64,000 nt of DNA. It comes from an uncultured delta proteobacterium (GTDB lineage Bacteria; Desulfobacterota; RBG-13-43-22). Below, in pieces: positions 7,265 through 50,306 of this stretch; position 1 is the first letter of the stretch, and each line of letters begins with the position of its first letter. The stretch spans positions 224,001 to 288,000 of the forward strand of contig CAWBOS010000006.1 of NCBI GenBank assembly GCA_963790475.1. The letters are read 5' to 3'. The position numbers and the translations under genes were made by a program. A model generated the notes under the pieces. It was not told the DNA's origin. It saw nothing but the letters and a program-made list of their open reading frames with translations, and did not search any database.

Positions 7265-7485
7265 AGTCAAAATGAAAAATGGAAAGTGCAGTTTGGTCTG
7301 TTTGGTCTATTGAGTCTATTGAGTTTGTTGAGTTCATTGCGTTGAGGAGAGAGGAAGAAGGAGAAAGGACAGGAAACACGGGGAAGAATGGATTGATGGA
7401 ATAATGGAAAAGGCAACAAGGATCAACCCAAACCACTCAAGTAACTCAATAACCCAACTAACTCAAGCAACCCAATAAATTCAAC
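7265..7485. repeat. Mosaic of 7-, 9- and 8-nt tracts with complementary 9-nt arms
   Basis: gtttggtct/gtttggtct/attgagtct/attgagttt/gttgagttc (7291-7345) versus caacccaaa/ccactcaag/taactcaa/taacccaac/taactcaag/caacccaat (7424-7485). Confidence 0.8.
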
Positions 7486-7908: not shown

Positions 7909-8145
7909 ATGATAGAGGTAAATGCCAAAAAGGCTCGTGGGCAGTTAAGCTCCTTGCTTAAACAAGTCGAGGAAGGAGAAGAAGTGATCATTTCCCGTAA
8001 TGGAAAAAGGATTGCCCGGATGGTTTCTTTAATAGAATCCCCCAAGCGACTTCCAAGCTTGAATGATTTCAGGGCAAAGGTCAGAATTAATGGTGAGCCG
8101 CTGAGTGGAATCGTGGTGCAATCCCGGAAGGAAGAACGCTATTGA
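7909..8145 (+). CDS. Phd/YefM-family antitoxin
   Basis: VNAKKARGQLSSLL...GEEVIISRNGKRIARMV; upstream TTGACA (7826) with palindrome acactttat-ggt-ataaagtgt. Confidence 0.92.
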   Translation: MIEVNAKKARGQLSSLLKQVEEGEEVIISRNGKRIARMVSLIESPKRLPSLNDFRAKVRINGEPLSGIVVQSRKEERY

Positions 8146-8212
8146 TGATGGTATTGAAAAAAGTTCACAATCGTTACGAGCCTATTGAGGCATCATCCTA
8201 GGGAGGTAATCG

Positions 8213-8668
8213 TTGATGGTTTATGTAGATACCAGTCTTCTTGCCGCCTATTATTCCCCTGAACCTTTGAGCGGGAAAGCAGAGGAATTTCTAATTGGTC
8301 AGGAGGGGTTGGCCATCAGCAGTCTGACCGAAATTGAGCTTTTTTCAGCCCTTTCAAGAAAGGTGCGGGAGGAAGGACTTCATCAAATGGATGCTAAAAA
8401 GATTGCTTCTCGGTTTCTGTCCCATGTGGATGGGAATTTTTTCAAATATCTTACAGTAGAAACCAGACATTATCGACTGGCACGTGATTGGTTGGGGTTG
8501 TTCAACACCAGTCTGCGAAGCCTGGATGCCTTGCATTTAGCCGTAGCCTCATCACAAGGATTAGCTGTCGCTACCTCCGATCTTAAATTTTCCCAATCAG
8601 CTCGCGCAATGGGTCTGGAAGTTCTGTTGATTTCGTTTGAGGAGCCGAATGCCGAGAAAAGCATTTAA
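8213..8668 (+). CDS. VapC/PIN toxin
   Basis: YVDTSLL, LTEIEL, LRSLDALHLAVA, ATSD. Confidence 0.94.
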   Translation: MMVYVDTSLLAAYYSPEPLSGKAEEFLIGQEGLAISSLTEIELFSALSRKVREEGLHQMDAKKIASRFLSHVDGNFFKYLTVETRHYRLARDWLGLFNTSLRSLDALHLAVASSQGLAVATSDLKFSQSARAMGLEVLLISFEEPNAEKSI

Positions 8669-8710
8669 AAGTATCTGTGACCAGGGCTTCAGTCTAATAC
8701 TCTTCTATAT

Positions 8711-9052
8711 CTATATGGATAGATGAACCTTCATGGCCTTGTCAATCGCTTCTATATCTTCGAGTTCCAGTTTCCCTATGAATTTTATCAACCTCCTTCG
8801 ATCAAGGGTCCGAATCTGATCGGCCTTAACCTTGGAGTCTTTGGGCAGGTTGCCTTTTCCCTGAGGGATGAAAACCTCAAAAGGGTAAATCTTCTCCAAG
8901 TTTTTAGAGGTAACCGTAAGAACGGTCACTGTGCTTGAATACAGGTTATTGACGTCATTGGAAACCACCACCACCGGCCTGGTTTTTGCTATTTCGTTCC
9001 CGATTGCCGGATCTAGACCGGCCAGAAAGACATCGCCTCGCTTAATATTCAT
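8711..9052 (-). CDS. MazF/PemK-family toxin
   Basis: KRGDVFLAGLDPAIGNEIAKTRPVVVVSND, DQIRTLD. Confidence 0.95.
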   Translation of the reverse strand: MNIKRGDVFLAGLDPAIGNEIAKTRPVVVVSNDVNNLYSSTVTVLTVTSKNLEKIYPFEVFIPQGKGNLPKDSKVKADQIRTLDRRRLIKFIGKLELEDIEAIDKAMKVHLSI

Positions 9053-9296
9053 CCCAGCCCTCCAAGTCGATAATGAAAAAATCTTGCGAAATTTCCCGAC
9101 CTTCTCCGTTGCGGACTTGGTAGCCTTCCTTCAGTATTTGTTCTTGTCGTTCCCTCCGCATTTTTTTCAATTTTTCTCTCAAGGTCATTGCAATAAATTG
9201 ACTTTTTTTGCGTGGTTCAACAAATTGATTTAATTCCTCCACTAGTTCATCCGGCAAAGTAATATTCAGCCTGGTGGTCTCCATAATGCACCTCAT
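9042..9296 (-). CDS. RHH antitoxin (start probably at METTRLN)
   Basis: RLNITLPDEL...KSQFI...LKEGY; upstream palindrome atgtatt-aat-aatacat. Confidence 0.88.
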   Translation of the reverse strand: MRCIMETTRLNITLPDELVEELNQFVEPRKKSQFIAMTLREKLKKMRRERQEQILKEGYQVRNGEGREISQDFFIIDLEGWDEY

Positions 9297-9421
9297 TTGA
9301 TGTATTAATAATACATATTAATTTACACATTCAATTAAATTTTATCAAGATAAATTTGGAACACCTTAATAGGAAAAAAAAACGAAGATTGGTGACTGAG
9401 CAACCTATGAAAAGAGTTTTA

Positions 9422-9490
9422 TAGTCAAAATGAAAAATGCAAAAGATAAAGTGCAAAATGAAAAAAGGGTAAAGGGGAGGGTGGTGGGTT
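9422..9490 (+). repeat. Heptamer tandem tract
   Basis: agtcaaa/atgaaaa/atgcaaa/agataaa/gtgcaaa/atgaaaa; same family as 7265 and 16341. Confidence 0.7.
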
Positions 9491-9518
9491 CATAGTCAGA
9501 GAGCTGGGTTCAGAGACC

Positions 9519-9944
9519 TCAACATATCTTTTCCCCTTGTGCGGCTACTTTTAACCTTGCATCATAGGTCAAAAGCAGCAATTCAGGAAAATGGTCTTGA
9601 AGACCCTTGGCAGCAGATAGATGCCAGAGGTCGGCTCCTCCGAGGGGCCATTTATTGGACAGATTCCTGATGATATTCCATTGGGGGATGATAAATAACC
9701 GTCTCCAAGGACCATTTTCCAAAACTTCAACTGCTGCATCCACAAGAAGCGCGGCCATGTCTCTTTCGCGCCGAATTCTCGATAAAACCGCAAGCACTTC
9801 TGCATAGGATAAATGGGAAAGGAAATGGTGTCCTGATTGACCGGCCCATTTCTGGGCGTTCTGGCTGTGTTCATCTAATAGGAGGGCTGAAAGTACGGCC
9901 GAGGCATCCCAGTAGATGACTACCGGTTTTTCTTCCCTTGTCAT
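9519..9944 (-). CDS. VapC/PIN toxin
   Basis: YWDASAVL, YAEV, GADLWHL, LTYDARL. Confidence 0.92.
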   Translation of the reverse strand: MTREEKPVVIYWDASAVLSALLLDEHSQNAQKWAGQSGHHFLSHLSYAEVLAVLSRIRRERDMAALLVDAAVEVLENGPWRRLFIIPQWNIIRNLSNKWPLGGADLWHLSAAKGLQDHFPELLLLTYDARLKVAAQGEKIC

Positions 9945-10228
9945 CGGTCTCTTCCCTCTTGAAGATATCTTTGGGCTAAACCTTCCGGTGCGGGAAGGGG
10001 CGGGGGGAGACGTCTTCCGTAATTTTTTGACAAGGGTTCGGTCAACCCTTGTTCTTCCAGGATTCGGATACGATCCTCAAGGGAAAGTTTTTTCTGAGAA
10101 AAAGGGATTATTCTCCCTATCGGCTTGCCCCGTTCGGTAATAATGACCTCCTGACCTTCTTTAACTTTTTTCATTACTTTGCTCAAATTAATTTTGGCAT
10201 CCCGTATTCCAAAGGTTTTCGATAGCAT
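9941..10228 (-). CDS. Phd/YefM-family antitoxin
   Basis: GIRDAKINLS...GQEVIITERGKPIGRIIP. Confidence 0.92.
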   Translation of the reverse strand: MLSKTFGIRDAKINLSKVMKKVKEGQEVIITERGKPIGRIIPFSQKKLSLEDRIRILEEQGLTEPLSKNYGRRLPPPLPAPEGLAQRYLQEGRDR

Positions 10229-10315
10229 AGTTCGTTCCTTTTTTGGTGACTTTGTAGTTACAATTTTAATGCAGTCTATGTAGTCATCTAGGTCAAGTTA
10301 TTTAATAAGATAACA

Positions 10316-10571
10316 GTGAAAGGGAAAAGGGGAAAGGGGAGAGGGGTTGGTTACGGGTTACAAGTTGCGGATTCATTGAAAAGTCTTGGGTTGAGGACTG
10401 AGGAGAAAGGATTTTTTACGCCAAATCCAACAAATTACAGTCAGTCAATAAAGGAAACAGACCAAACGACCAGACAGATAAAACAGACCAAACGACCAGA
10501 CAGATAAAACAGACCAGAAAGACCAAAAAAACGAACAGACCAAAAAAAAACCAGATAGACTCAATTAACTC
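10316..10571. repeat. Heptamer tracts followed by AC-rich ~9-nt tract containing a perfect 26-bp tandem duplication
   Basis: aaaggga/aaagggg; ggttacg/ggttaca/agttgcg; aaacagaccaaacgaccagacagata at 10455-10480 and 10481-10506. Confidence 0.85.
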
Positions 10572-10801
10572 TAAAAACAAAGCACCTTAATGCTAACAGC
10601 CGGCAGATCTTCCAAGAGGGGAAACCCTGGAAATTCCTTTACCTCTGTTCCATTTTGGTCTAATCTGGTCTTTAGGTAATGCTCGGAGACTGAAACGATG
10701 CCCGGGCCCGCTGATCCGGACTCCCGGTTATTTCTTTAGCCAAAAAAACTTCATTCGGAGGGTTAAGGTTAAAAGGCCACAGACCAAAGAGGAAGATAAG
10801 G

Positions 10802-11686
10802 ATGATGATGGACAAACAAACCAAACTGAGAACCGCATTATTTTTTCTGATAACAGTCATTATCGGCCTGTTGATTTTATTTCCTCTAAAGGCACTTTTG
10901 TATTCGGAATCCAAAGGGATGTATTATGAATATTATTCCCATATTCTTTTGATACCCCTGGTGAGCGCCTACTTGCTTTATAACCGTCGCCAAGAAATAT
11001 GGGAATTCAAGAAAACCGCCATCCCGGTGTCGGGAGTTTTGGTTGGCGTTATTGGTATTATAGGCTACGGGACAGCCTTGGTACAAGATCAAAACATGGG
11101 ATTCATTAATGCCGTCGCCGGGCAAATCACTGGCTTACTTATTGCCTGGTTGGGAGCCTTCCTGCTTTTCTGGGGGACGGCCGCTTTTCGGCAGGCCCTT
11201 TTCCCTTTGCTGTTCCTTTTCTTTATGGTGCCGGTCCCCATGGATCTGATGGACGCCTTTATTTATGCCCTCCAGTGGGGGTCTTCCGAGGCTACAGGGC
11301 TGATCTTCAGTGTCCTCGGCACCCCTTATTACCGGGAAGGCTTCATCTTTCAACTGCAGACGGTCACCATCGAAGTAGCCAGGCAGTGCAGCGGCATCCG
11401 CTCCACCATGGCCATGGTCATCACCGGTGTCCTGGCCGCCCACCTTTTTTTGCGCGACAACGGGAAGAAGCTGATCCTGATGTTGACCATATTACCAATA
11501 ACTGTTTTTAAAAACGGCCTAAGGATCGTCATCCTGACGCTTTTGGCCATTCATGTTGACATGCGTTTCCTGACCGACAGCTTTTTGCACCATTCCGGGG
11601 GGTTTTTGTTTTATATACCGGGACTTTTAATTTTTGGGGGAATCCTCTTGCTTTTAAGAAGAGTTGAAAAAAGGACTGAGGACTGA
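10802..11686 (+). CDS. Exosortase (EpsH/Xrt family)
   Basis: Multi-TM; YSHILLIP; catalytic-type motifs QCSGIRS, NGLRI, HHSGG; adjacent to prsK/prsR. Confidence 0.92.
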   Translation: MMMDKQTKLRTALFFLITVIIGLLILFPLKALLYSESKGMYYEYYSHILLIPLVSAYLLYNRRQEIWEFKKTAIPVSGVLVGVIGIIGYGTALVQDQNMGFINAVAGQITGLLIAWLGAFLLFWGTAAFRQALFPLLFLFFMVPVPMDLMDAFIYALQWGSSEATGLIFSVLGTPYYREGFIFQLQTVTIEVARQCSGIRSTMAMVITGVLAAHLFLRDNGKKLILMLTILPITVFKNGLRIVILTLLAIHVDMRFLTDSFLHHSGGFLFYIPGLLIFGGILLLLRRVEKRTED

Positions 11687-11702
11687 GTGCTTAGGATTGA
11701 GG
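11672..11702 (+). repeat. Left heptamer arm of four-helix-bundle cassette 1
   Basis: aggactgaggactgagtgcttaggattgagg; contains the exosortase stop codon. Confidence 0.85.
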
Positions 11703-11769
11703 GGTGAATTAGATAGAAGACCGGGAATGATTTTAAGGGACATTTTCAAGAATTTGAAAGGAAAGAATT

Positions 11770-12162
11770 GTGGAAAAGAAAAAAATTGAAAAATTTGAAG
11801 ATTTGATTGCCTGGCAGAAAGCCCGCGAATTGACAAAAATTATTTACCAAATTACGAACTACGGGAAGTTTTCGACGGATTTTGGGGTAAGGGATCAAAT
11901 CCGAAGATCAGCCGTTTCCAATATTGCTGAAGGATTCGAGCGGGGAGGTCGGGCGGAATTCCACCAATATTTAGTTATTGCAAAAGGCTCTTGCGCGGAA
12001 TTAAGATCCCAATTATATGTTGCCTTGGATGCCGGGTATCTTGACATAGTCACCTATCAAAAAGTAAATGCCTTGGCTGAAGAAACAAGCCGTTTGATAG
12101 GTGGACTTAGATCAGCAGTCTATCGCCAGAAAACTGTTGATCGTGTAAAGAGAACAAATTAA
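11770..12162 (+). CDS. Four-helix-bundle protein (23S rRNA IVP/TIGR02436-like)
   Basis: [46 protein letters not shown]. Confidence 0.93.
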
Positions 12163-12259
12163 GATAAGAGGGAAAACATAACAAAAAGAGTTTATTTTGG
12201 TATTCGGAATTGAAGAAAACGAACCTTATTCCCGGAGCATAAGGTCTGATGAATAAGTT

Positions 12260-12282
12260 CTCAGTCCATCGTCCTCAGTCCT
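12260..12282 (+). repeat. Right heptamer arm of cassette 1 (inverted)
   Basis: ctcagtccatcgtcctcagtcct; last 12 nt are the exact reverse complement of 11672-11683. Confidence 0.85.
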
Positions 12283-12288
12283 AAAAAA

Positions 12289-14415
12289 ATGCTTTCCTAT
12301 ACTTTACTTATATCTTTAGTCGCTGCTTCCCTGGCGGGTCTGATTGCCGCCCTGGCCCTGTATCGCGATCCCCACAACTTGGTACACAAGATATTGGCCG
12401 CTGGGATGGTGGTTCTGGCTGTTGACGCAATCTTGACCTTCCTGAGCAGGGGGGCTTCCGAGCCTATGGGCATGATCGCCTGGCGGCAATGGCTTTACCT
12501 GGTTTCTGCTTTTCTTCCGGCCTTGTGGCTGGCCTTCGGTCTCAGCTATGCCCGTGCCGATCACCGGGAAAATCTGTTGCGCTGGAAATGGACCCTGGGC
12601 CTCGTCTTGGTCATCCCTCTGGTGCTGGCTGGCATTTATCGGGATGCTCTTTTTGCCGGGCCGCCGGTTTGGATTCCCGACACCGGGTGGGTCATTCCCT
12701 TGGGATGGGCAGGTTACGCCTTTAATCTGTTCCTACTCATTACCTTTATTATGATTCTTCTCGATTTGGAAAAGACCCTACGGGGTTCGCGCGGGGTCAT
12801 GCGCTGGCAGATCAAGTTTACTGTCCTGGGTCTGATCGCCCTTTTCGGAGCACGGATATTCACTTCCAGCCAGAATATTCTTTATCGCTCCGATAACCTG
12901 GACTTGGCGCTGGTCAACAACGGGGCACTTATTATCGCCGGGGTGTTGATTCTTCGGTCGTTGTTTCGGACCAAATTCTTCAGTGCTGAGCTCTATGTTT
13001 CCCAAAAGATTCTCTACAACTCGCTGACCCTGCTGATTATCGGCATTTACTTCATCGCCGTCAGTCTTTTGGCCAAGCTTTCGACCTACTGGTTCCTCGG
13101 CCGGACCTTACCCCTCCAGGCCTTTTTCCTACTGGTGGCCCTGGTAGGTTTAACGATCCTCATTTTTTCCGACCGGCTTCGCCGCAAAACCAAGCTTTTT
13201 ATCAGCCGTAATTTCCAACGCCCCCTTTACGACTATCGTAAGGAATGGATCCGTTTCACCCAGGAGACCACGGCGGTTCGAAATGTCCAGGATCTTTGTC
13301 AGGCTGTAACCCGAATGGTTTCTGATATCCTCCATTTCCTTTCCGTAACCATCTGGTTGGTGGACGAAGCAGGTGGAAGGCTGGTTCTGGGCGGTTCCAC
13401 AGCGATTACCCAACAGGAGGCCGATTCTCTGAGACCCTTCGAAAAGGCACAGAAAGAATTAATCGAGGCTATGGCTATGGAAGTGGATCCGGTGGATTTT
13501 GACAGCGCTTCGACTTCCTGGTCCATCAGCATCCCGGAATTAGACCTGGAATTTTTGAAGGCGGCTCGAATCCGCTATGTGGTGACTCTTCGAGCCGGAG
13601 AAACCTTGATCGGGTTGTTGACCTTGGATCAAAGAGTAGCCGAAGATCTATTGACCCTGGAGGACTTCGACCTCATTAAGACCATCGCCGATCAGACTTC
13701 CGCCGGATTGAACCAGTTAAGATTGGCCGAAAAGGTCCAGAAGACCCGGGAGATGGAGGCCTTTCAAACCATGTCCACCTTTTTCATCCATGACCTGAAA
13801 AATGTGGCCTCCCGTCTTTCACTGACCATGCAGAATCTGCCGGTACATTTTAACAATCCCGAGTTCCGGCAAGATGCCCTGCAAAGCATCGGCCAGAGTC
13901 TGGAAAAGATCAACGGATTATGCAGCCGCCTATCCTCCTTGCGGGAAAAACTGGAGGTGCATCTGAAAGAAGCTGATCTGAACGAAATGGTAAAAAAGAA
14001 TCTATCTGAATTTGAAGGAGCGTTGCAAGCCCGCCTGATCCAGGACTTTACCCCACTTCCCAGAATTCCATTGGACCTGGAGCAGATTTCCAAGGTCCTG
14101 ACCAACCTGGTCTTAAATGCCAATGAAGCCCTAACTCCCGGGAATGCCGGCGGCGAAATCCGGGTGGCCACTCGCCTTTTGAATAATTGGGTCGAGTTTT
14201 CGGTTAGTGACAATGGTCTGGGCATGTCCCGGGAAATGATAGAGCGCTCCCTTTTCCTGCCTTTCCGGACCACCAAGAAGCAAGGCATGGGCATCGGCCT
14301 TTTTCAGAGTAAGATGATTGTCGAAGCCCACCACGGACGCATCGAGGTGGAAAGCGAGGAGGGAAAGGGGACGACGTTCAGGGTGTTGCTGCCGACCTAT
14401 AATAAAAGGGGGTAG
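12289..14415 (+). CDS. prsK: PEP-CTERM system histidine kinase
   Basis: N-terminal multi-TM region, YDYRKEW, GAF-like domain, FFIHDLKN H-box, GMGIGL ATPase; context. Confidence 0.9.
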   Translation: MLSYTLLISLVAASLAGLIAALALYRDPHNLVHKILAAGMVVLAVDAILTFLSRGASEPMGMIAWRQWLYLVSAFLPALWLAFGLSYARADHRENLLRWKWTLGLVLVIPLVLAGIYRDALFAGPPVWIPDTGWVIPLGWAGYAFNLFLLITFIMILLDLEKTLRGSRGVMRWQIKFTVLGLIALFGARIFTSSQNILYRSDNLDLALVNNGALIIAGVLILRSLFRTKFFSAELYVSQKILYNSLTLLIIGIYFIAVSLLAKLSTYWFLGRTLPLQAFFLLVALVGLTILIFSDRLRRKTKLFISRNFQRPLYDYRKEWIRFTQETTAVRNVQDLCQAVTRMVSDILHFLSVTIWLVDEAGGRLVLGGSTAITQQEADSLRPFEKAQKELIEAMAMEVDPVDFDSASTSWSISIPELDLEFLKAARIRYVVTLRAGETLIGLLTLDQRVAEDLLTLEDFDLIKTIADQTSAGLNQLRLAEKVQKTREMEAFQTMSTFFIHDLKNVASRLSLTMQNLPVHFNNPEFRQDALQSIGQSLEKINGLCSRLSSLREKLEVHLKEADLNEMVKKNLSEFEGALQARLIQDFTPLPRIPLDLEQISKVLTNLVLNANEALTPGNAGGEIRVATRLLNNWVEFSVSDNGLGMSREMIERSLFLPFRTTKKQGMGIGLFQSKMIVEAHHGRIEVESEEGKGTTFRVLLPTYNKRG

Positions 14416-14472
14416 GGTATAGGGTGTAAGGGGTAGGGTGGATACTTAATATGGGTTTTAGGGGGTAGGGTG
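14407..14472 (+). repeat. G-rich heptamer left arm of cassette 2
   Basis: ggggg/tagggta/tagggtg/taagggg/tagggtg; includes the prsK stop codon. Confidence 0.8.
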
Positions 14473-14510
14473 TTAGCTAGAGATAGGAAGCGAAAAAATG
14501 AGGGCAAAAA

Positions 14511-14868
14511 ATGGAGAGTTATAAGGAGTTGATCGCTTAATCAAAAAGGTTATCAATTATCCCTTCAGGTTTATGAGATTACAAAAAGATTTCCGAAAGA
14601 AGAGATTTATGGAATAATTTCTCAAATGAGGAGGAGCGCCGTTTCGATACCCTGTAACATCGTGGAAGGATATCGACGAGGACACAGAAAGGAACATATA
14701 CAATTCCTTTATATGTCTTATGGGTCTTGCAGTGAATTGGAGACCCTCCTTTCTTTATCTAAAAATCTTGGCTTTTTAGAACAGCACTTTTTTGATAAGA
14801 TTTATTCCTTACAAGAAGAAACTTCGAACTTATTGAAAAGTTTAATTGTATCCTTATCCCGGAAGTGA
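14511..14868 (+). pseudogene. Four-helix-bundle protein, frameshifted
   Basis: MESYKELIA then TAA; removing one base near 14539 restores AYQKGYQLSLQVYEITKRFPKEEIYGIISQMRRSAVSIPCNIVEGY. Confidence 0.88.
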
Positions 14869-14903
14869 TTTAGTTAGAACCCCCGGATTGAAAGGAAAAG
14901 AAT

Positions 14904-16298
14904 ATGCCGGAAGAATCACCCCCTCCCACCATCCCCCTCCCCCCTATTCAGAAGCCGCGTCTTCTTATCGTTGAAGATGATGAATCCATTCGCACCCAAA
15001 TGAAGTGGGCCCTGATGCAGGACTACGATGTCTTTCTATCCGAAGACCGGGCCAGGGCTTTAGATCTTTTGCGTTTGGAAAAGCCCGCCGTAGTAACTTT
15101 GGACCTCGGACTGCCACCAACCCCGGCGGATGTGACCGAAGGCTTTGCTGCTTTGGCTGATATCCTGGCTGAGGACAATCTGGTCAAGGTGATTATTATT
15201 ACCGGACAAGGGGAAAAGGACAACGCGCTGAAAGCCGTGGCCGAGGGGGCCTACGATTTCTTTATCAAACCCATACAGCTTGACGAACTTAAGGTGGTTA
15301 TTAGACGGGCCTTTTACGTTTCCCGTCTGGAACGCGAGAACCGGGTCTTACAGCAACAGGGGGCCGGACAGCCCTTTGCCGAAATGCTGGGCCGCAGCCC
15401 GCAGATGGAGGAGGTCATTACCACCATCCGCAAGGTGGCCACTACGGATGTTTCGGTGCTGATCAATGGTGAGAGCGGAACCGGTAAGGAATTAGTGGCC
15501 CGGGCCATTCATCAACATAGCAACAGGAGCAGCGGGCCGTTTGTAGTGATTAACTGTGGGGCAATCCCGGAGAACCTTCTGGAAAGTGAATTGTTCGGCC
15601 ACGAGAAGGGCTCCTTCACCGGTGCCCATATACAGCGCAAGGGTTTAATCGAGATGGCCCAGGGAGGAACCTTATTTCTAGATGAGATCGGGGAATTACC
15701 GCTGGGCCTGCAGGTCAAGCTCCTGCGTTTCCTTCAAGAACAGACCATTGAACGCGTCGGTGGAAGGGTCCAGATTGCCATAAATGCTCGGGTGTTGGCT
15801 GCCACCAACCTGGACCTCCAAAAGGCTGTGGCCGAGGGTCGCTTCCGTGAGGACCTTTATTTTCGGCTGGGAGTGATTTCCATTGCCCTACCGCCCTTAC
15901 GGGATCGGGAAGGTGACCTGATACTGCTGGCTAATGCTTTTCTGCATCGATATGTCCAGGAAACCAGAAAGAAAATAACCGGTTTCACTCAACAGGCCGT
16001 CAGGGCGATGGGCCAATATGCGTGGCCGGGGAACATCCGGGAGCTGGAAAACCGAATCAAGCGGGCGGTGGTCATGGCTGATGGAGCCAAGATTAATCCA
16101 CTGGACCTGGAACTGGAAACAGCCAAGGGTAAATATTACGGTCTTACTCTGAAAGATGCCCGGGAGGCTGTGGAAAAAGAACTGATTTTGAAGGCTCTGC
16201 AAAGGAATAAGGGGAAGGTGACCCAAACAGCCGATGAGCTGGGCATCAGCCGCCCTACCTTATATGAGCTTATGGAGAAGCTGGGGATTTCGAAATAA
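14904..16298 (+). CDS. prsR: PEP-CTERM system sigma54-dependent response regulator
   Basis: REC with [32 protein letters not shown], Fis [11 protein letters not shown]. Confidence 0.92.
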
Positions 16299-16314
16299 GC
16301 ATGGATATAGTAAA

Positions 16315-16470
16315 AAGGACTGGGGACTGAGTTATACTTAAGTCAAATTTCAAATTGCAAAGGGTAAAGGGCAAAATTAAAAATTTAAATGTTTTTGATG
16401 GATTCGGTGAAAAATCGGATGGAGGGGATGAAAAGATGGAATAATGGAAGGATGAAAAAATGATAGGAAT
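16315..16470 (+). repeat. Mosaic of 7- and 8-nt tandem tracts
   Basis: aggactggggactgag; agtcaaa/tttcaaa/ttgcaaa/gggtaaa/gggcaaa; gatggaataatggaaggatgaa. Confidence 0.7.
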
Positions 16471-16477
16471 CAATTTT

Positions 16478-16584
16478 TGTCGGGATTTCTTACAAAAACG
16501 AAAATTGATGTAAAATATAATAAAAATAAATAGTTATATAAAATAAGGCTTAAATGAAACTTCAATGTGTCGGAATATCTTACA
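16478..16584 (+). promoter_or_regulatory. Pair of enhancer (likely PrsR) boxes
   Basis: TGTCGGGATTTCTTACA (16478-16494) and TGTCGGAATATCTTACA (16568-16584), both TGT-N11-ACA, 90 bp apart. Confidence 0.8.
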
Positions 16585-16701
16585 AATAATATTTATGAAA
16601 ATTCATCTTTGGAATAAGACTTACTGAGAAGAAATATTTTTCATTAAGTAAATCAGCTAATTAGGACATATAAAAACATGATATTTAACTTTTTTCTATT
16701 A

Positions 16702-16717
16702 TGGCATAATTATTGCT
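16702..16717 (+). promoter_or_regulatory. sigma54 promoter of PEP-CTERM gene
   Basis: TGGCATAATTATTGCT, GG-N10-GC. Confidence 0.85.
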
Positions 16718-16750
16718 TTTATAATTTTATAACAAAAAAATAACTCTGAG

Positions 16751-17416
16751 GTGATACAAATGAAAAAATTCTTGATTATTATTTTTTTTATGATGTCGGC
16801 ATGTTTGATATTCGTACCGGCGACAATGGCGCTTACAATTAGCGACGGTGACTTGGTTCAGGTTCAATCTTACAACCCAAACGATATGGCCGGAATATTT
16901 ATCTTTAATGTGAAAAATAATGGTGGCAGTCCGCTGGGGACCTATGATACGTTTTGTATTCAGGAGACTGTTTATATTTACCCTGGCACTTGGTACCAAG
17001 TAGAACTATCAGATTATGTTGGTAAAAATCCAAATAATAGCGGCGATAAGCTAAACGGGGCGGTTGACTATCTCTTTTATCGGTACAAGTCCGGGGCCTA
17101 TGATACGCCATTTGCTGGCTCTTATTCTAACCAGGCTGATTTTCAAAAGCTTCTCTGGAGTCTACAAGGGACAGGTGATCCATTTTCGTCAACAGGAACG
17201 CTCTGGGCCAGTGATTTGGGAATTTATACAAGTGACTCCTCTCTACATCATCCCTGGGGGACCGAAGTTATTAACCTTTACACTGAAAATACTAACGGGG
17301 GATACACGGAAATTCAAAACCAACTATACAATCAGGTTCCAGAGCCCATGACTTTGCTGCTTCTTGGTTTTGGTCTTATTGGTGTTGCTGGTCTCAGGAG
17401 GAGGCTGAAAGCTTAA
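16751..17416 (+). CDS. PEP-CTERM sorting-domain protein
   Basis: N-terminal signal peptide; C-terminal VPEPMTLLLLGFGLIGVAGLRRR. Confidence 0.96.
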   Translation: MIQMKKFLIIIFFMMSACLIFVPATMALTISDGDLVQVQSYNPNDMAGIFIFNVKNNGGSPLGTYDTFCIQETVYIYPGTWYQVELSDYVGKNPNNSGDKLNGAVDYLFYRYKSGAYDTPFAGSYSNQADFQKLLWSLQGTGDPFSSTGTLWASDLGIYTSDSSLHHPWGTEVINLYTENTNGGYTEIQNQLYNQVPEPMTLLLLGFGLIGVAGLRRRLKA

Positions 17417-50121: not shown

Positions 50122-50306
50122 AAGCTCAAAGTTCAAAGTTCAAGGTTCAAGGTTCAAAGTTAAAAGTTCGAAAAAAAACCATTTTCATGTTTCAAGGCGC
50201 CCCATCGGGCAGGAAGGCTTAGGAGGAAAATACCCTGAGGCGTAAGGCGTGAGGCGAATCCGAATTTCATGCTCCGGCCTCAAACCTTAAACCTTATACC
50301 GAACCT
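50122..50306. repeat. Heptamer mosaic between ftsQ and ftsA
   Basis: (aag/agg)ttca x7, tgaggcg/taaggcg/tgaggcg, then complementary cctcaaa/ccttaaa/ccttata. Confidence 0.85.

Follow-up and report, generated by a model that had tools for sequence, protein, structure and literature searches.

A four-helix-bundle gene between inverted heptamer arrays in an exosortase–prsK–prsR operon resembles an intervening sequence of 23S rRNA

The intervening sequences (IVSs) of ribosomal RNA (rRNA) were first described more than 30 years ago, and to our knowledge neither their function nor their origin nor the way in which they spread has been established; the PF05635 protein family is very large and without an assigned function outside diversity-generating retroelements (DGRs), and the heptamer repeats of bacterial genomes are likewise unexplained. 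Here, we describe a locus in a 64,000-nt stretch of the genome of an uncultured delta proteobacterium (the window; part of contig C6 of the 6.3-Mb genome labelled G000), in which a PF05635 gene bracketed by inverted heptamer arrays (the arms) lies between the exosortase gene xrt and prsK, with prsR further downstream. The closest described systems are the IVSs of 23S rRNA, as in helix 45 of Coxiella burnetii and in Leptospira. In the accessible part of the Coxiella report (PMC4990558), the IVS is 428 nt long, carries an open reading frame (ORF) for an S23p protein and is closed by a terminal stem of 28 bp, in the middle of which RNase III cleaves in vitro, excision of the IVS leaving the flanks unligated; two or three tandem GACAGAT heptamers, in a number that depends on the strain, stand ahead of the ORF. 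PF05635-family ORFs within inserts of both 16S and 23S rRNA are also described in a paper on rRNA insertions of the candidate phyla radiation (CPR).

Judged by analogy, the design of the window locus (Table 1) is that of an ORF-bearing 23S rRNA IVS, but it is sited in the spacer of a protein-coding operon. As in the IVSs of Coxiella and Leptospira, so far as the accessible parts of the sources describe them, an S23p/PF05635 ORF lies in the loop of a terminal inverted-repeat stem, tandem heptamers precede the ORF in numbers that vary between strains (here, two units fewer in the related-strain assemblies X2 and X3), the ORF decays while the RNA element persists, and the unit measures roughly 430–620 nt. 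Specifically, the terminal inverted repeats in the window close a predicted stem with the PF05635 ORF in its loop. Unlike in the rRNA systems, the host is an mRNA operon spacer and not an rRNA helix, and cut halves would not be held together; moreover, one arm overlaps a stop codon and the other ends 6 nt short of a start codon, and processing is something that we infer for this locus. The single 23S rRNA gene detected in G000 lies elsewhere (C6:835590-838748). As a separate observation, this gene measures 3159 nt compared with 2925 nt in the model, and within it two inverted 28-nt repeats with 89% complementarity enclose 103 nt (L145:3236-3394); the insert looks like a short ORF-less IVS with arms that are not obviously heptameric. 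A literature search, which did not cover subscription journals and supplements, found no description of heptamer-armed PF05635 cassettes outside rRNA genes.

The initial annotation of the window described a left arm that overlaps the xrt stop codon and a right arm that ends shortly before prsK, with 12 bp of perfect complementarity between them, and its coordinates and letters are all correct. The xrt stop codon TGA (11684-11686) lies inside the left heptamer array, the right arm ends at 12282, 6 nt short of the prsK ATG at 12289, and 11672-11683 is 100% complementary to 12271-12282 over 12 nt; longer pairings between the arms span 22–23 nt and are imperfect (74–77% complementary). Flanks were scored by locally aligning the upstream 250 nt with the reverse-complemented downstream 250 nt. 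The window locus has a flank score of 12.0, which was reached in 58 of 3000 random spans of G000. The predicted RNA duplex of the two arms has an energy of −35.6 kcal/mol, and 0.1% of 2000 random partner windows were as low. The heptamer pattern, allowing up to 3 mismatches, occurs 13 times in the window compared with a mean of 1.16 and a maximum of 4 in 100 shuffles. We conclude that the 12-bp match taken alone is weak and only modestly above chance; the strong argument is the recurrence of the layout across the gene family rather than the single locus.

Of the 13 PF05635 matches in G000, ten have a flank inverted-repeat score of at least 12 (the 99th percentile of 3000 random spans being 12.5), and these armed copies show about ten different repeat units; the three matches below 12 are the second copy in the window, C6:201103 and the sub-threshold match C13:330098. 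The family is present in 18 of 20 related genomes (19 of 21 including G000). From the 30 loci returned, we left out two from G000 and one fragment, and 22 of the 27 loci examined score at least 12.5 while three score 11 or less. In a scan across phyla using one genome per species, 80 loci were obtained, 72 of them with both flanks, and 66 of these 72 score at least 12.5, their arms being tandem arrays with periods between 7 and 9. Since units also recur between unrelated loci (with scores up to 45), a null model built from mismatched loci was dropped in favour of flanks moved 600 nt outward from the same loci; in this matched control, the real flanks score at least 12.5 in 60 of 63 cases and the shifted flanks in two of 63. 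Thus, inverted arms at other members of the family, for which the initial annotation had proposed to look in this genome, are found in G000 and far beyond it, and the arm–ORF–arm layout is the rule for the PF05635 family across bacterial phyla.

The position of these loci relative to their neighbors is equally regular. Among 68 diverse loci, the two neighboring genes run in the same direction as the cassette gene in 55 and both run opposite to it in four, with six mixed cases and three in which the flanking ORFs are weak; in G000, both neighbors are co-oriented with the family gene in nine of 13 cases. Cassettes are, therefore, overwhelmingly located between co-directional genes and in the orientation of these genes. 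The gap between the upstream stop codon and the left arm has a median of 5 nt (n=57, 17 of them overlapping), and that between the right arm and the downstream start codon a median of 12.5 nt (n=56, with start codons guessed from the ORFs). Such short gaps between arms and genes are as expected if the units enter the short spacers of operons, and they show that each unit ends in its arms.

Direct comparison of junctions also identifies the unit. Scanning metagenome contigs with the exosortase returned two loci, L146 (xrt 63% identical) and L147 (xrt 77% identical). In L146, only 4 nt separate the xrt stop from the prsK ATG, and 52 nt separate prsK from prsR, with a cassette at neither junction; the empty xrt–prsK junction anticipated in the initial annotation thus exists. 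In L147, the same junction holds a different PF05635 gene (E 2.5e-17), by eye very unlike that of the window, between AAAATGC-type arms (score 18), and prsK starts as in the window. Hence, three states of the xrt–prsK junction are known, one empty and two with different fillings, and we conclude that 11672-12282 is one inserted arm–ORF–arm unit whose ends are the two inverted heptamer arrays. Of the suggestion that this is a minimal mobile IVS-like unit, the part that holds is that gene and arms behave as one insert, as seen from L146 and L147; movement of the window copy itself was not seen. The last codons of xrt in the window (T-E-D) together with the TGA stop come from the left heptamer array, and the xrt orthologues in G020, L146 and L147 end three residues sooner in the alignment (...EKK*, ...PKG* and ...RKE*). 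A-runs lie outside both arms, and because the right-hand A-run is also present in L147 beside a different cassette, it may be native spacer. No consistent target-site duplication was detected by eye among the armed copies of G000, at the guaB–guaA junction described below or at the L146 and L147 junctions.

Variation was also found among close strains and within the genus. Contigs of X2 and X3 (one sample) are ~94% identical to the window over the cassette stretch, those of X4 somewhat less, and X1 consists of short pieces; relative to the window, the left arm in X2 and X3 is without 14 nt, corresponding to the two units mentioned above. A search of the genus found prsK in two of 13 other genomes: the contig of G003 begins within prsK, and in G013 the query returned no xrt orthologue and an ORF-less AGGATAA-type hairpin precedes prsK. 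The guaB–guaA junction (G000 C13:464300-467000, L121/L129; relatives L130-L141) is a cassette hot spot in this genus, holding three cassette lineages, each with its own unit: AGTTCGG-type (G000 and G009), CGTTCGT-type (G010 and G004) and AAGGTNT-type (G012, G008, G007 and G003). In G001, the junction carries a 79-nt ORF-less hairpin whose arms are those of the G010 cassette. In G000, the AGTTCGG-type left arm is still preceded by a degenerate CGTTCGT-type array, a remnant of an arm of that other lineage.

The product of the window gene scores 105.3 bits against PF05635 (cut-off 33.8) and 93.5 bits against TIGR02436 (cut-off 24), and phmmer matches it to 2gsc_A at E 1e-11. Its AlphaFold2 model has a pLDDT of 90.3, and the top Foldseek matches of the model are 2gsc (E 1.4e-5, TM-score 0.82 normalized to the target) and 2rld (TM-score 0.82), followed by the DGR protein Avd (4dwl and 8ub7, TM-scores 0.76–0.79 normalized to the target). 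The structural kinship with Avd that had been proposed for this family is thus borne out at the level of the predicted fold; in addition, the second copy in the window weakly matches a bAvd-like Pfam model (E 9e-6, which does not reach the cut-off). Unlike for Avd, none of the nine RVT_1 matches in G000 is on contig C6, and all of them are more than 50 kb away from any PF05635 gene. As an observation in its own right, these nine matches are on C10, C13 and C15, and four of them have identical scores and 488-aa frames, suggestive of multi-copy retroelements.

The suspicion that the protein has lost three codons was also well founded. The family hallmark is an uninterrupted S-[IV]-x-S-N-I-A-E-G; the window protein reads A-V-S-N-I-A-E-G, with three residues gone, and is alone among 18 aligned family members in having this 3-column gap. 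The in-frame 9-nt deletion lies directly after 11919 in the most conserved motif of the family, and in the model helix 2 is predicted to be broken at residues 48–50, the site of the deletion. Because the related-strain contigs in runs X2, X3 and X4 (two samples) have the nine missing bases after 11919, coding for I-M-S, the deletion is real and recent, and the protein is a family member with a recent lesion. The window cassette is a typical and slightly decayed member of the class of heptamer-armed PF05635 cassettes.

The prsK–prsR junction of the window holds a second cassette, in which the left arm region begins at the prsK stop. The predicted duplex of 14406-14481 with 14870-14946 has an energy of −55 kcal/mol, and 1.7% of controls were as low. 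We also noted that 14414-14445 contains five runs of at least three G spaced 2–5 nt apart, by which a G-quadruplex may be possible; G-quadruplex formation has been studied for the heptamers of Xanthomonas and Nostoc (accessible part of PMC4692102). The second PF05635 gene has one base more than the genes of G003 and G017, giving TAA at codon 10 and a +1 frameshift. The protein is 64% identical between G000 and the intact gene of G017, compared with 45% for PrsK. Translation of the right arm gives PrsR a proline-rich N-terminal extension, and the cassette-free L146 is without this extension. The same arrangement with GGGTAGG-type units is also present at the prsK–prsR junction of G003, G017 and G020, and G027, from another family, has a remnant with other units. 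In both window cassettes the ORF has a lesion (the 9-nt deletion and the frameshift, respectively), and the arms are retained; because both ORFs are damaged while the arms persist, the cassette protein may no longer be important in this strain. In G013, the prsK–prsR slot (L002) holds a PD-(D/E)XK_3 (PF13366) gene instead, with inverted ACAGGATT-type repeats around it. Of six PF13366 matches in G000, two have clear inverted arms and two others score 12–17.5 on other repeats; direct repeats flank the first PF13366 copy and three copies on C11. The picture for PD-(D/E)XK_3 genes as a second type of cargo is mixed.

Heptamer arrays are also abundant in G000 without a gene between them. There are 1375 period-7 arrays with a Tandem Repeats Finder (TRF) score of at least 24, and where two arrays with related units lie within less than 50 nt of each other, the pair is inverted in 62 cases and direct in ten. 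After removal of duplicates, 61 ORF-less hairpins remained; of the 60 that were classed, 47 lie between co-directional genes and one has only weak flanking ORFs. As documented by G001 and G010, an ORF-less hairpin can be a cassette minus its ORF, or the reverse. The idea that each repeat family has one gene found no support in a simple tally of G000: the AGTTCGG type, with 69 arrays the commonest, has a gene with matching arms, and most of the next-commonest units do not. Heptamer repeats in other bacteria, so far as the accessible parts of the reports go, comprise convergent GGGAATC pairs in Xanthomonas and GGGGA(C/T)T repeats in Nostoc, for which no association with mobile elements is reported (PMC4692102), and direct TAACTGA repeats in Beggiatoaceae (PMC4679880); terms for the PF05635 family do not occur in the Xanthomonas/Nostoc paper. 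As here, these are intergenic tandem 7-mers that are G-rich on one strand and often form convergent stem–loop pairs. In contrast, the accessible accounts link them to neither a gene family nor mobile elements, whereas here the arrays bracket a PF05635 gene in 60 of 63 loci, and they describe one unit per genome, whereas cassette units differ from copy to copy.

The cassettes are also reminiscent of repetitive extragenic palindromic (REP) sequences and REPINs with their associated RAYT genes, and of MITEs (miniature transposable elements with inverted repeats) with their parent transposons, in that a gene is flanked by an inverted short repeat that is also frequent without the gene, and the ORF-less hairpins resemble non-autonomous derivatives (for example, G001 compared with G010). 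The differences are that a transposase-like domain is absent, that the arms are not common to the copies, that there is no clear target-site duplication and that the unit of the window cassette is rare in the genome. Specifically, profile searches of the cassette detected no transposase domain, and the roughly ten different units among the armed copies of G000 are not those of a transposon or MITE family.

Considering all of this, we lean, with no great margin of confidence, towards the reading that the element is an IVS-type cassette co-transcribed with xrt–prsK–prsR, in which the arms form an RNA stem that is a plausible substrate of RNase III. Apparently without a promoter of its own, the cassette would be transcribed within the operon RNA; its 5′ arm, which is G-rich, and its C-rich 3′ arm would pair into a long-range stem around the ORF, and the base of the stem would bring the xrt stop and the prsK start together. 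Cleavage by RNase III, as in rRNA IVSs, would free the ORF as a separate mRNA and leave the operon transcript in two pieces that are not religated, and a ribosome completing xrt might melt the base of the stem beside the prsK start. The predicted fold of 11655-12300 is consistent with this model: both the minimum free energy and the centroid structure close on the arms, with a z-score of −3.49 (20 shuffles). A sigma-70-like promoter is absent from the plus strand of the 5′ spacer, and a promoter/terminator scan was not above shuffles; an Rfam search of 10000-17000 gave no match except one at chance level. A gene for RNase III, rnc, is found in G000. A look-up of RNA runs covering 10800-13000 listed none. 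Co-orientation supports a role at the RNA level; an inverted repeat is the same on both strands, so that the bias concerns the ORF relative to host transcription. The initial annotation had the arms loop out the gene and rejoin the operon; looping-out and processing at the arms may occur. Literal rejoining of the operon RNA we reject, because RNase III excision of the known IVS leaves unligated flanks (PMC4990558, in its accessible part) and nothing here points to ligation; at most, the stem would juxtapose the xrt stop and the prsK start.

Several findings weigh against this reading, and a number of them favor the alternative that the arms are DNA or protein-binding arrays that mark where a mobile or selfish DNA unit ends, with RNA pairing as a by-product, which we consider unlikely but a serious contender; each arm would then be a row of sites for a sequence-specific factor, most simply the cassette's own pentameric four-helix-bundle protein. 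The stem of the window is short, with 12 perfect pairs and an interrupted second helix. Among arm mismatches in 66 loci, 109 are G·U-compatible in the sense orientation compared with 120 in antisense only (p 0.51), and transversions predominate (333); because the mismatches are without G·U bias, selection for RNA pairing is not visible in their spectrum, which weakens the case for an RNA stem and is in line with a DNA or protein site. Unit sequences are conserved far beyond neutral expectation, for example at prsK–prsR, where GGGTAGG-type arms are common to genera in which PrsK is only 45% identical; what is conserved there is the unit type and not the order of the array. Arm similarity also rises with protein identity (Spearman 0.156, with none of 500 permutations as high), and arms are shared by 27% of pairs at 60–70% protein identity compared with 1.7% at 50–60%. 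Unit conservation and covariation both speak for recognition of specific sequences, possibly by the protein that the cassette encodes, and not just for pairing; however, co-inheritance of gene and arms accounts for the covariation equally well, without any binding. Recognition of a DNA or protein site would also agree with the fixed polarity of the arms (in the 5′ arm, G exceeds C in 51 of 60 cassettes, with five the reverse and four ties, and the G-rich arm comes first in 51 of the 61 ORF-less hairpins), with three lineages and units at one junction, two of these lineages being related and having the related units GTTCGGA and GTTCGTC, and with gain, loss and replacement at the DNA level at guaB–guaA and in L146/L147. 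By contrast, it fits poorly that a 120-aa helical bundle is without known catalytic activity, that in G000 most of the commonest unit families are without a family gene bearing matching arms while the window unit is rare, and that co-orientation with host transcription (55 compared with four) is unexpected for a DNA-level element with symmetrical ends. The RNA-stem reading also has to accommodate that no empty allele was found among the close-strain assemblies bridging the locus, since X2/X3 and X4 all carry the cassette, and that, in the accessible part of their report, the Coxiella authors doubt that the IVS protein is made and find an unremarkable RNA half-life (PMC4990558). An extension of the binding idea, which we regard as speculative and doubtful, is that each PF05635 lineage reads its own heptamer unit, so that cassettes would be self-recognizing selfish units that colonize operon spacers and rRNA helices, with the many ORF-less heptamer hairpins of bacterial genomes, such as STRR-like repeats and the GGGAATC pairs of Xanthomonas, as decayed or non-autonomous offspring; if true, self-recognition would explain in one stroke a large protein family of unknown function and a type of repeat that has long been puzzling.

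Two further explanations concern the host operon and chance. That the PEP-CTERM operon has co-opted the cassette genes, with small proteins or RNA structures tuning the expression or activity of PrsK and PrsR, would agree with the presence of a PF05635 gene at prsK–prsR in two genera (G000 and G003; G017, G014 and G020) with the remnant in G027, with the higher conservation of the cassette protein there than of PrsK, and with the translation of the right arm as part of PrsR; we nevertheless find this improbable because the same type of cassette is present in unrelated operons such as guaB–guaA and in many phyla, the same operon is without a cassette in L146, the slot of G013 holds a PD-(D/E)XK family gene instead, and both window copies are damaged. 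A coincidence, in which two of the abundant heptamer arrays happen to flank a resident gene in opposite orientation, could draw on the 1375 arrays of G000 and on a single-locus score at only about the 98th percentile, but is hardly credible given that the matched control across phyla already contradicts it, that ten of 13 copies in G000 are armed and that the xrt–prsK junction is found empty and alternatively filled.

This locus and its relatives tie rRNA IVSs, the PF05635 family and heptamer repeats into one object that also lives in ordinary operons, where a cassette has to leave room for the genes on either side to be expressed. The xrt–prsK junction offers a natural series, namely empty, filled with a first type of cassette with or without the 9-nt deletion and with two units more or fewer, and filled with a second type, which defines the ends of the unit. 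The particular value of the locus lies in such junctions, found in nature both empty and with alternative fillings, and in the variants between strains. For annotation, it is important to note that a stop codon can come from an arm and that extended N-termini, for example the proline-rich one of PrsR, may be derived from repeats.

Table 1 Positions of the operon genes, cassette parts and heptamer arrays in the window
Feature	Position	Strand	Basis
Short further array of the GGACTGA unit, upstream of xrt	10388-10409	+	
xrt, exosortase gene	10802-11686	+	PF09721 E 1e-45; TIGR02602 127.7 bits
Left arm, degenerate 7-nt unit (AGGACTG type), 4.4 copies	11672-11702	+	TRF period 7; inverted-repeat pairs I1, I2, I4
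5′ spacer, with purine-rich 11757-11765 lying 5-13 nt before the GTG start	11703-11769	+	Sequence
Four-helix-bundle gene, 130 aa, PF05635/TIGR02436	11770-12162	+	Profile searches
3′ spacer, ORF stop to right arm	12163-12253	+	Sequence; partly pairs with the 5′ spacer in the predicted fold
Right arm, CAGTCCT type, reverse complement of the left unit, 3.9 copies (TRF 12256-12282)	12254-12282	+	
prsK, PEP-CTERM system histidine kinase	12289-14415	+	TIGR02916 383 bits, cut-off 300
Second-cassette left arm region, G-rich 7-nt units (GGGTAGG type), begins at the prsK stop	14406-14481	+	Sequence
Second PF05635 gene, broken	14511-14868	+	Remaining part 14539-14865 scores 113 bits
prsR, PEP-CTERM-box response regulator	14904-16298	+	TIGR02915 628 bits, cut-off 502.6
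Second-cassette right arm, C-rich units, within the prsR frame	14919-14946	+	Codes P-P-P-T-I-P-L-P-P
Short further array of the GGACTGA unit, directly after prsR	16317-16331	+	

In the profile search, no exosortase subtype model reached its own cut-off for the ORF at 10802-11686. The GGACTGA unit is rare genome-wide and recurs on both sides of the operon; two units with at most one mismatch are present at only two sites in the genome, the left arm and 16317-16331. The intergenic regions 10300-10560, 16317-16470, 820-940, 7269-7475 and 50122-50300 are dense in short arrays of several 7- to 9-nt units. Directly upstream of the operon, at 7909-10228, are three pairs of small ORFs that, by their translations alone, appear toxin–antitoxin-like.

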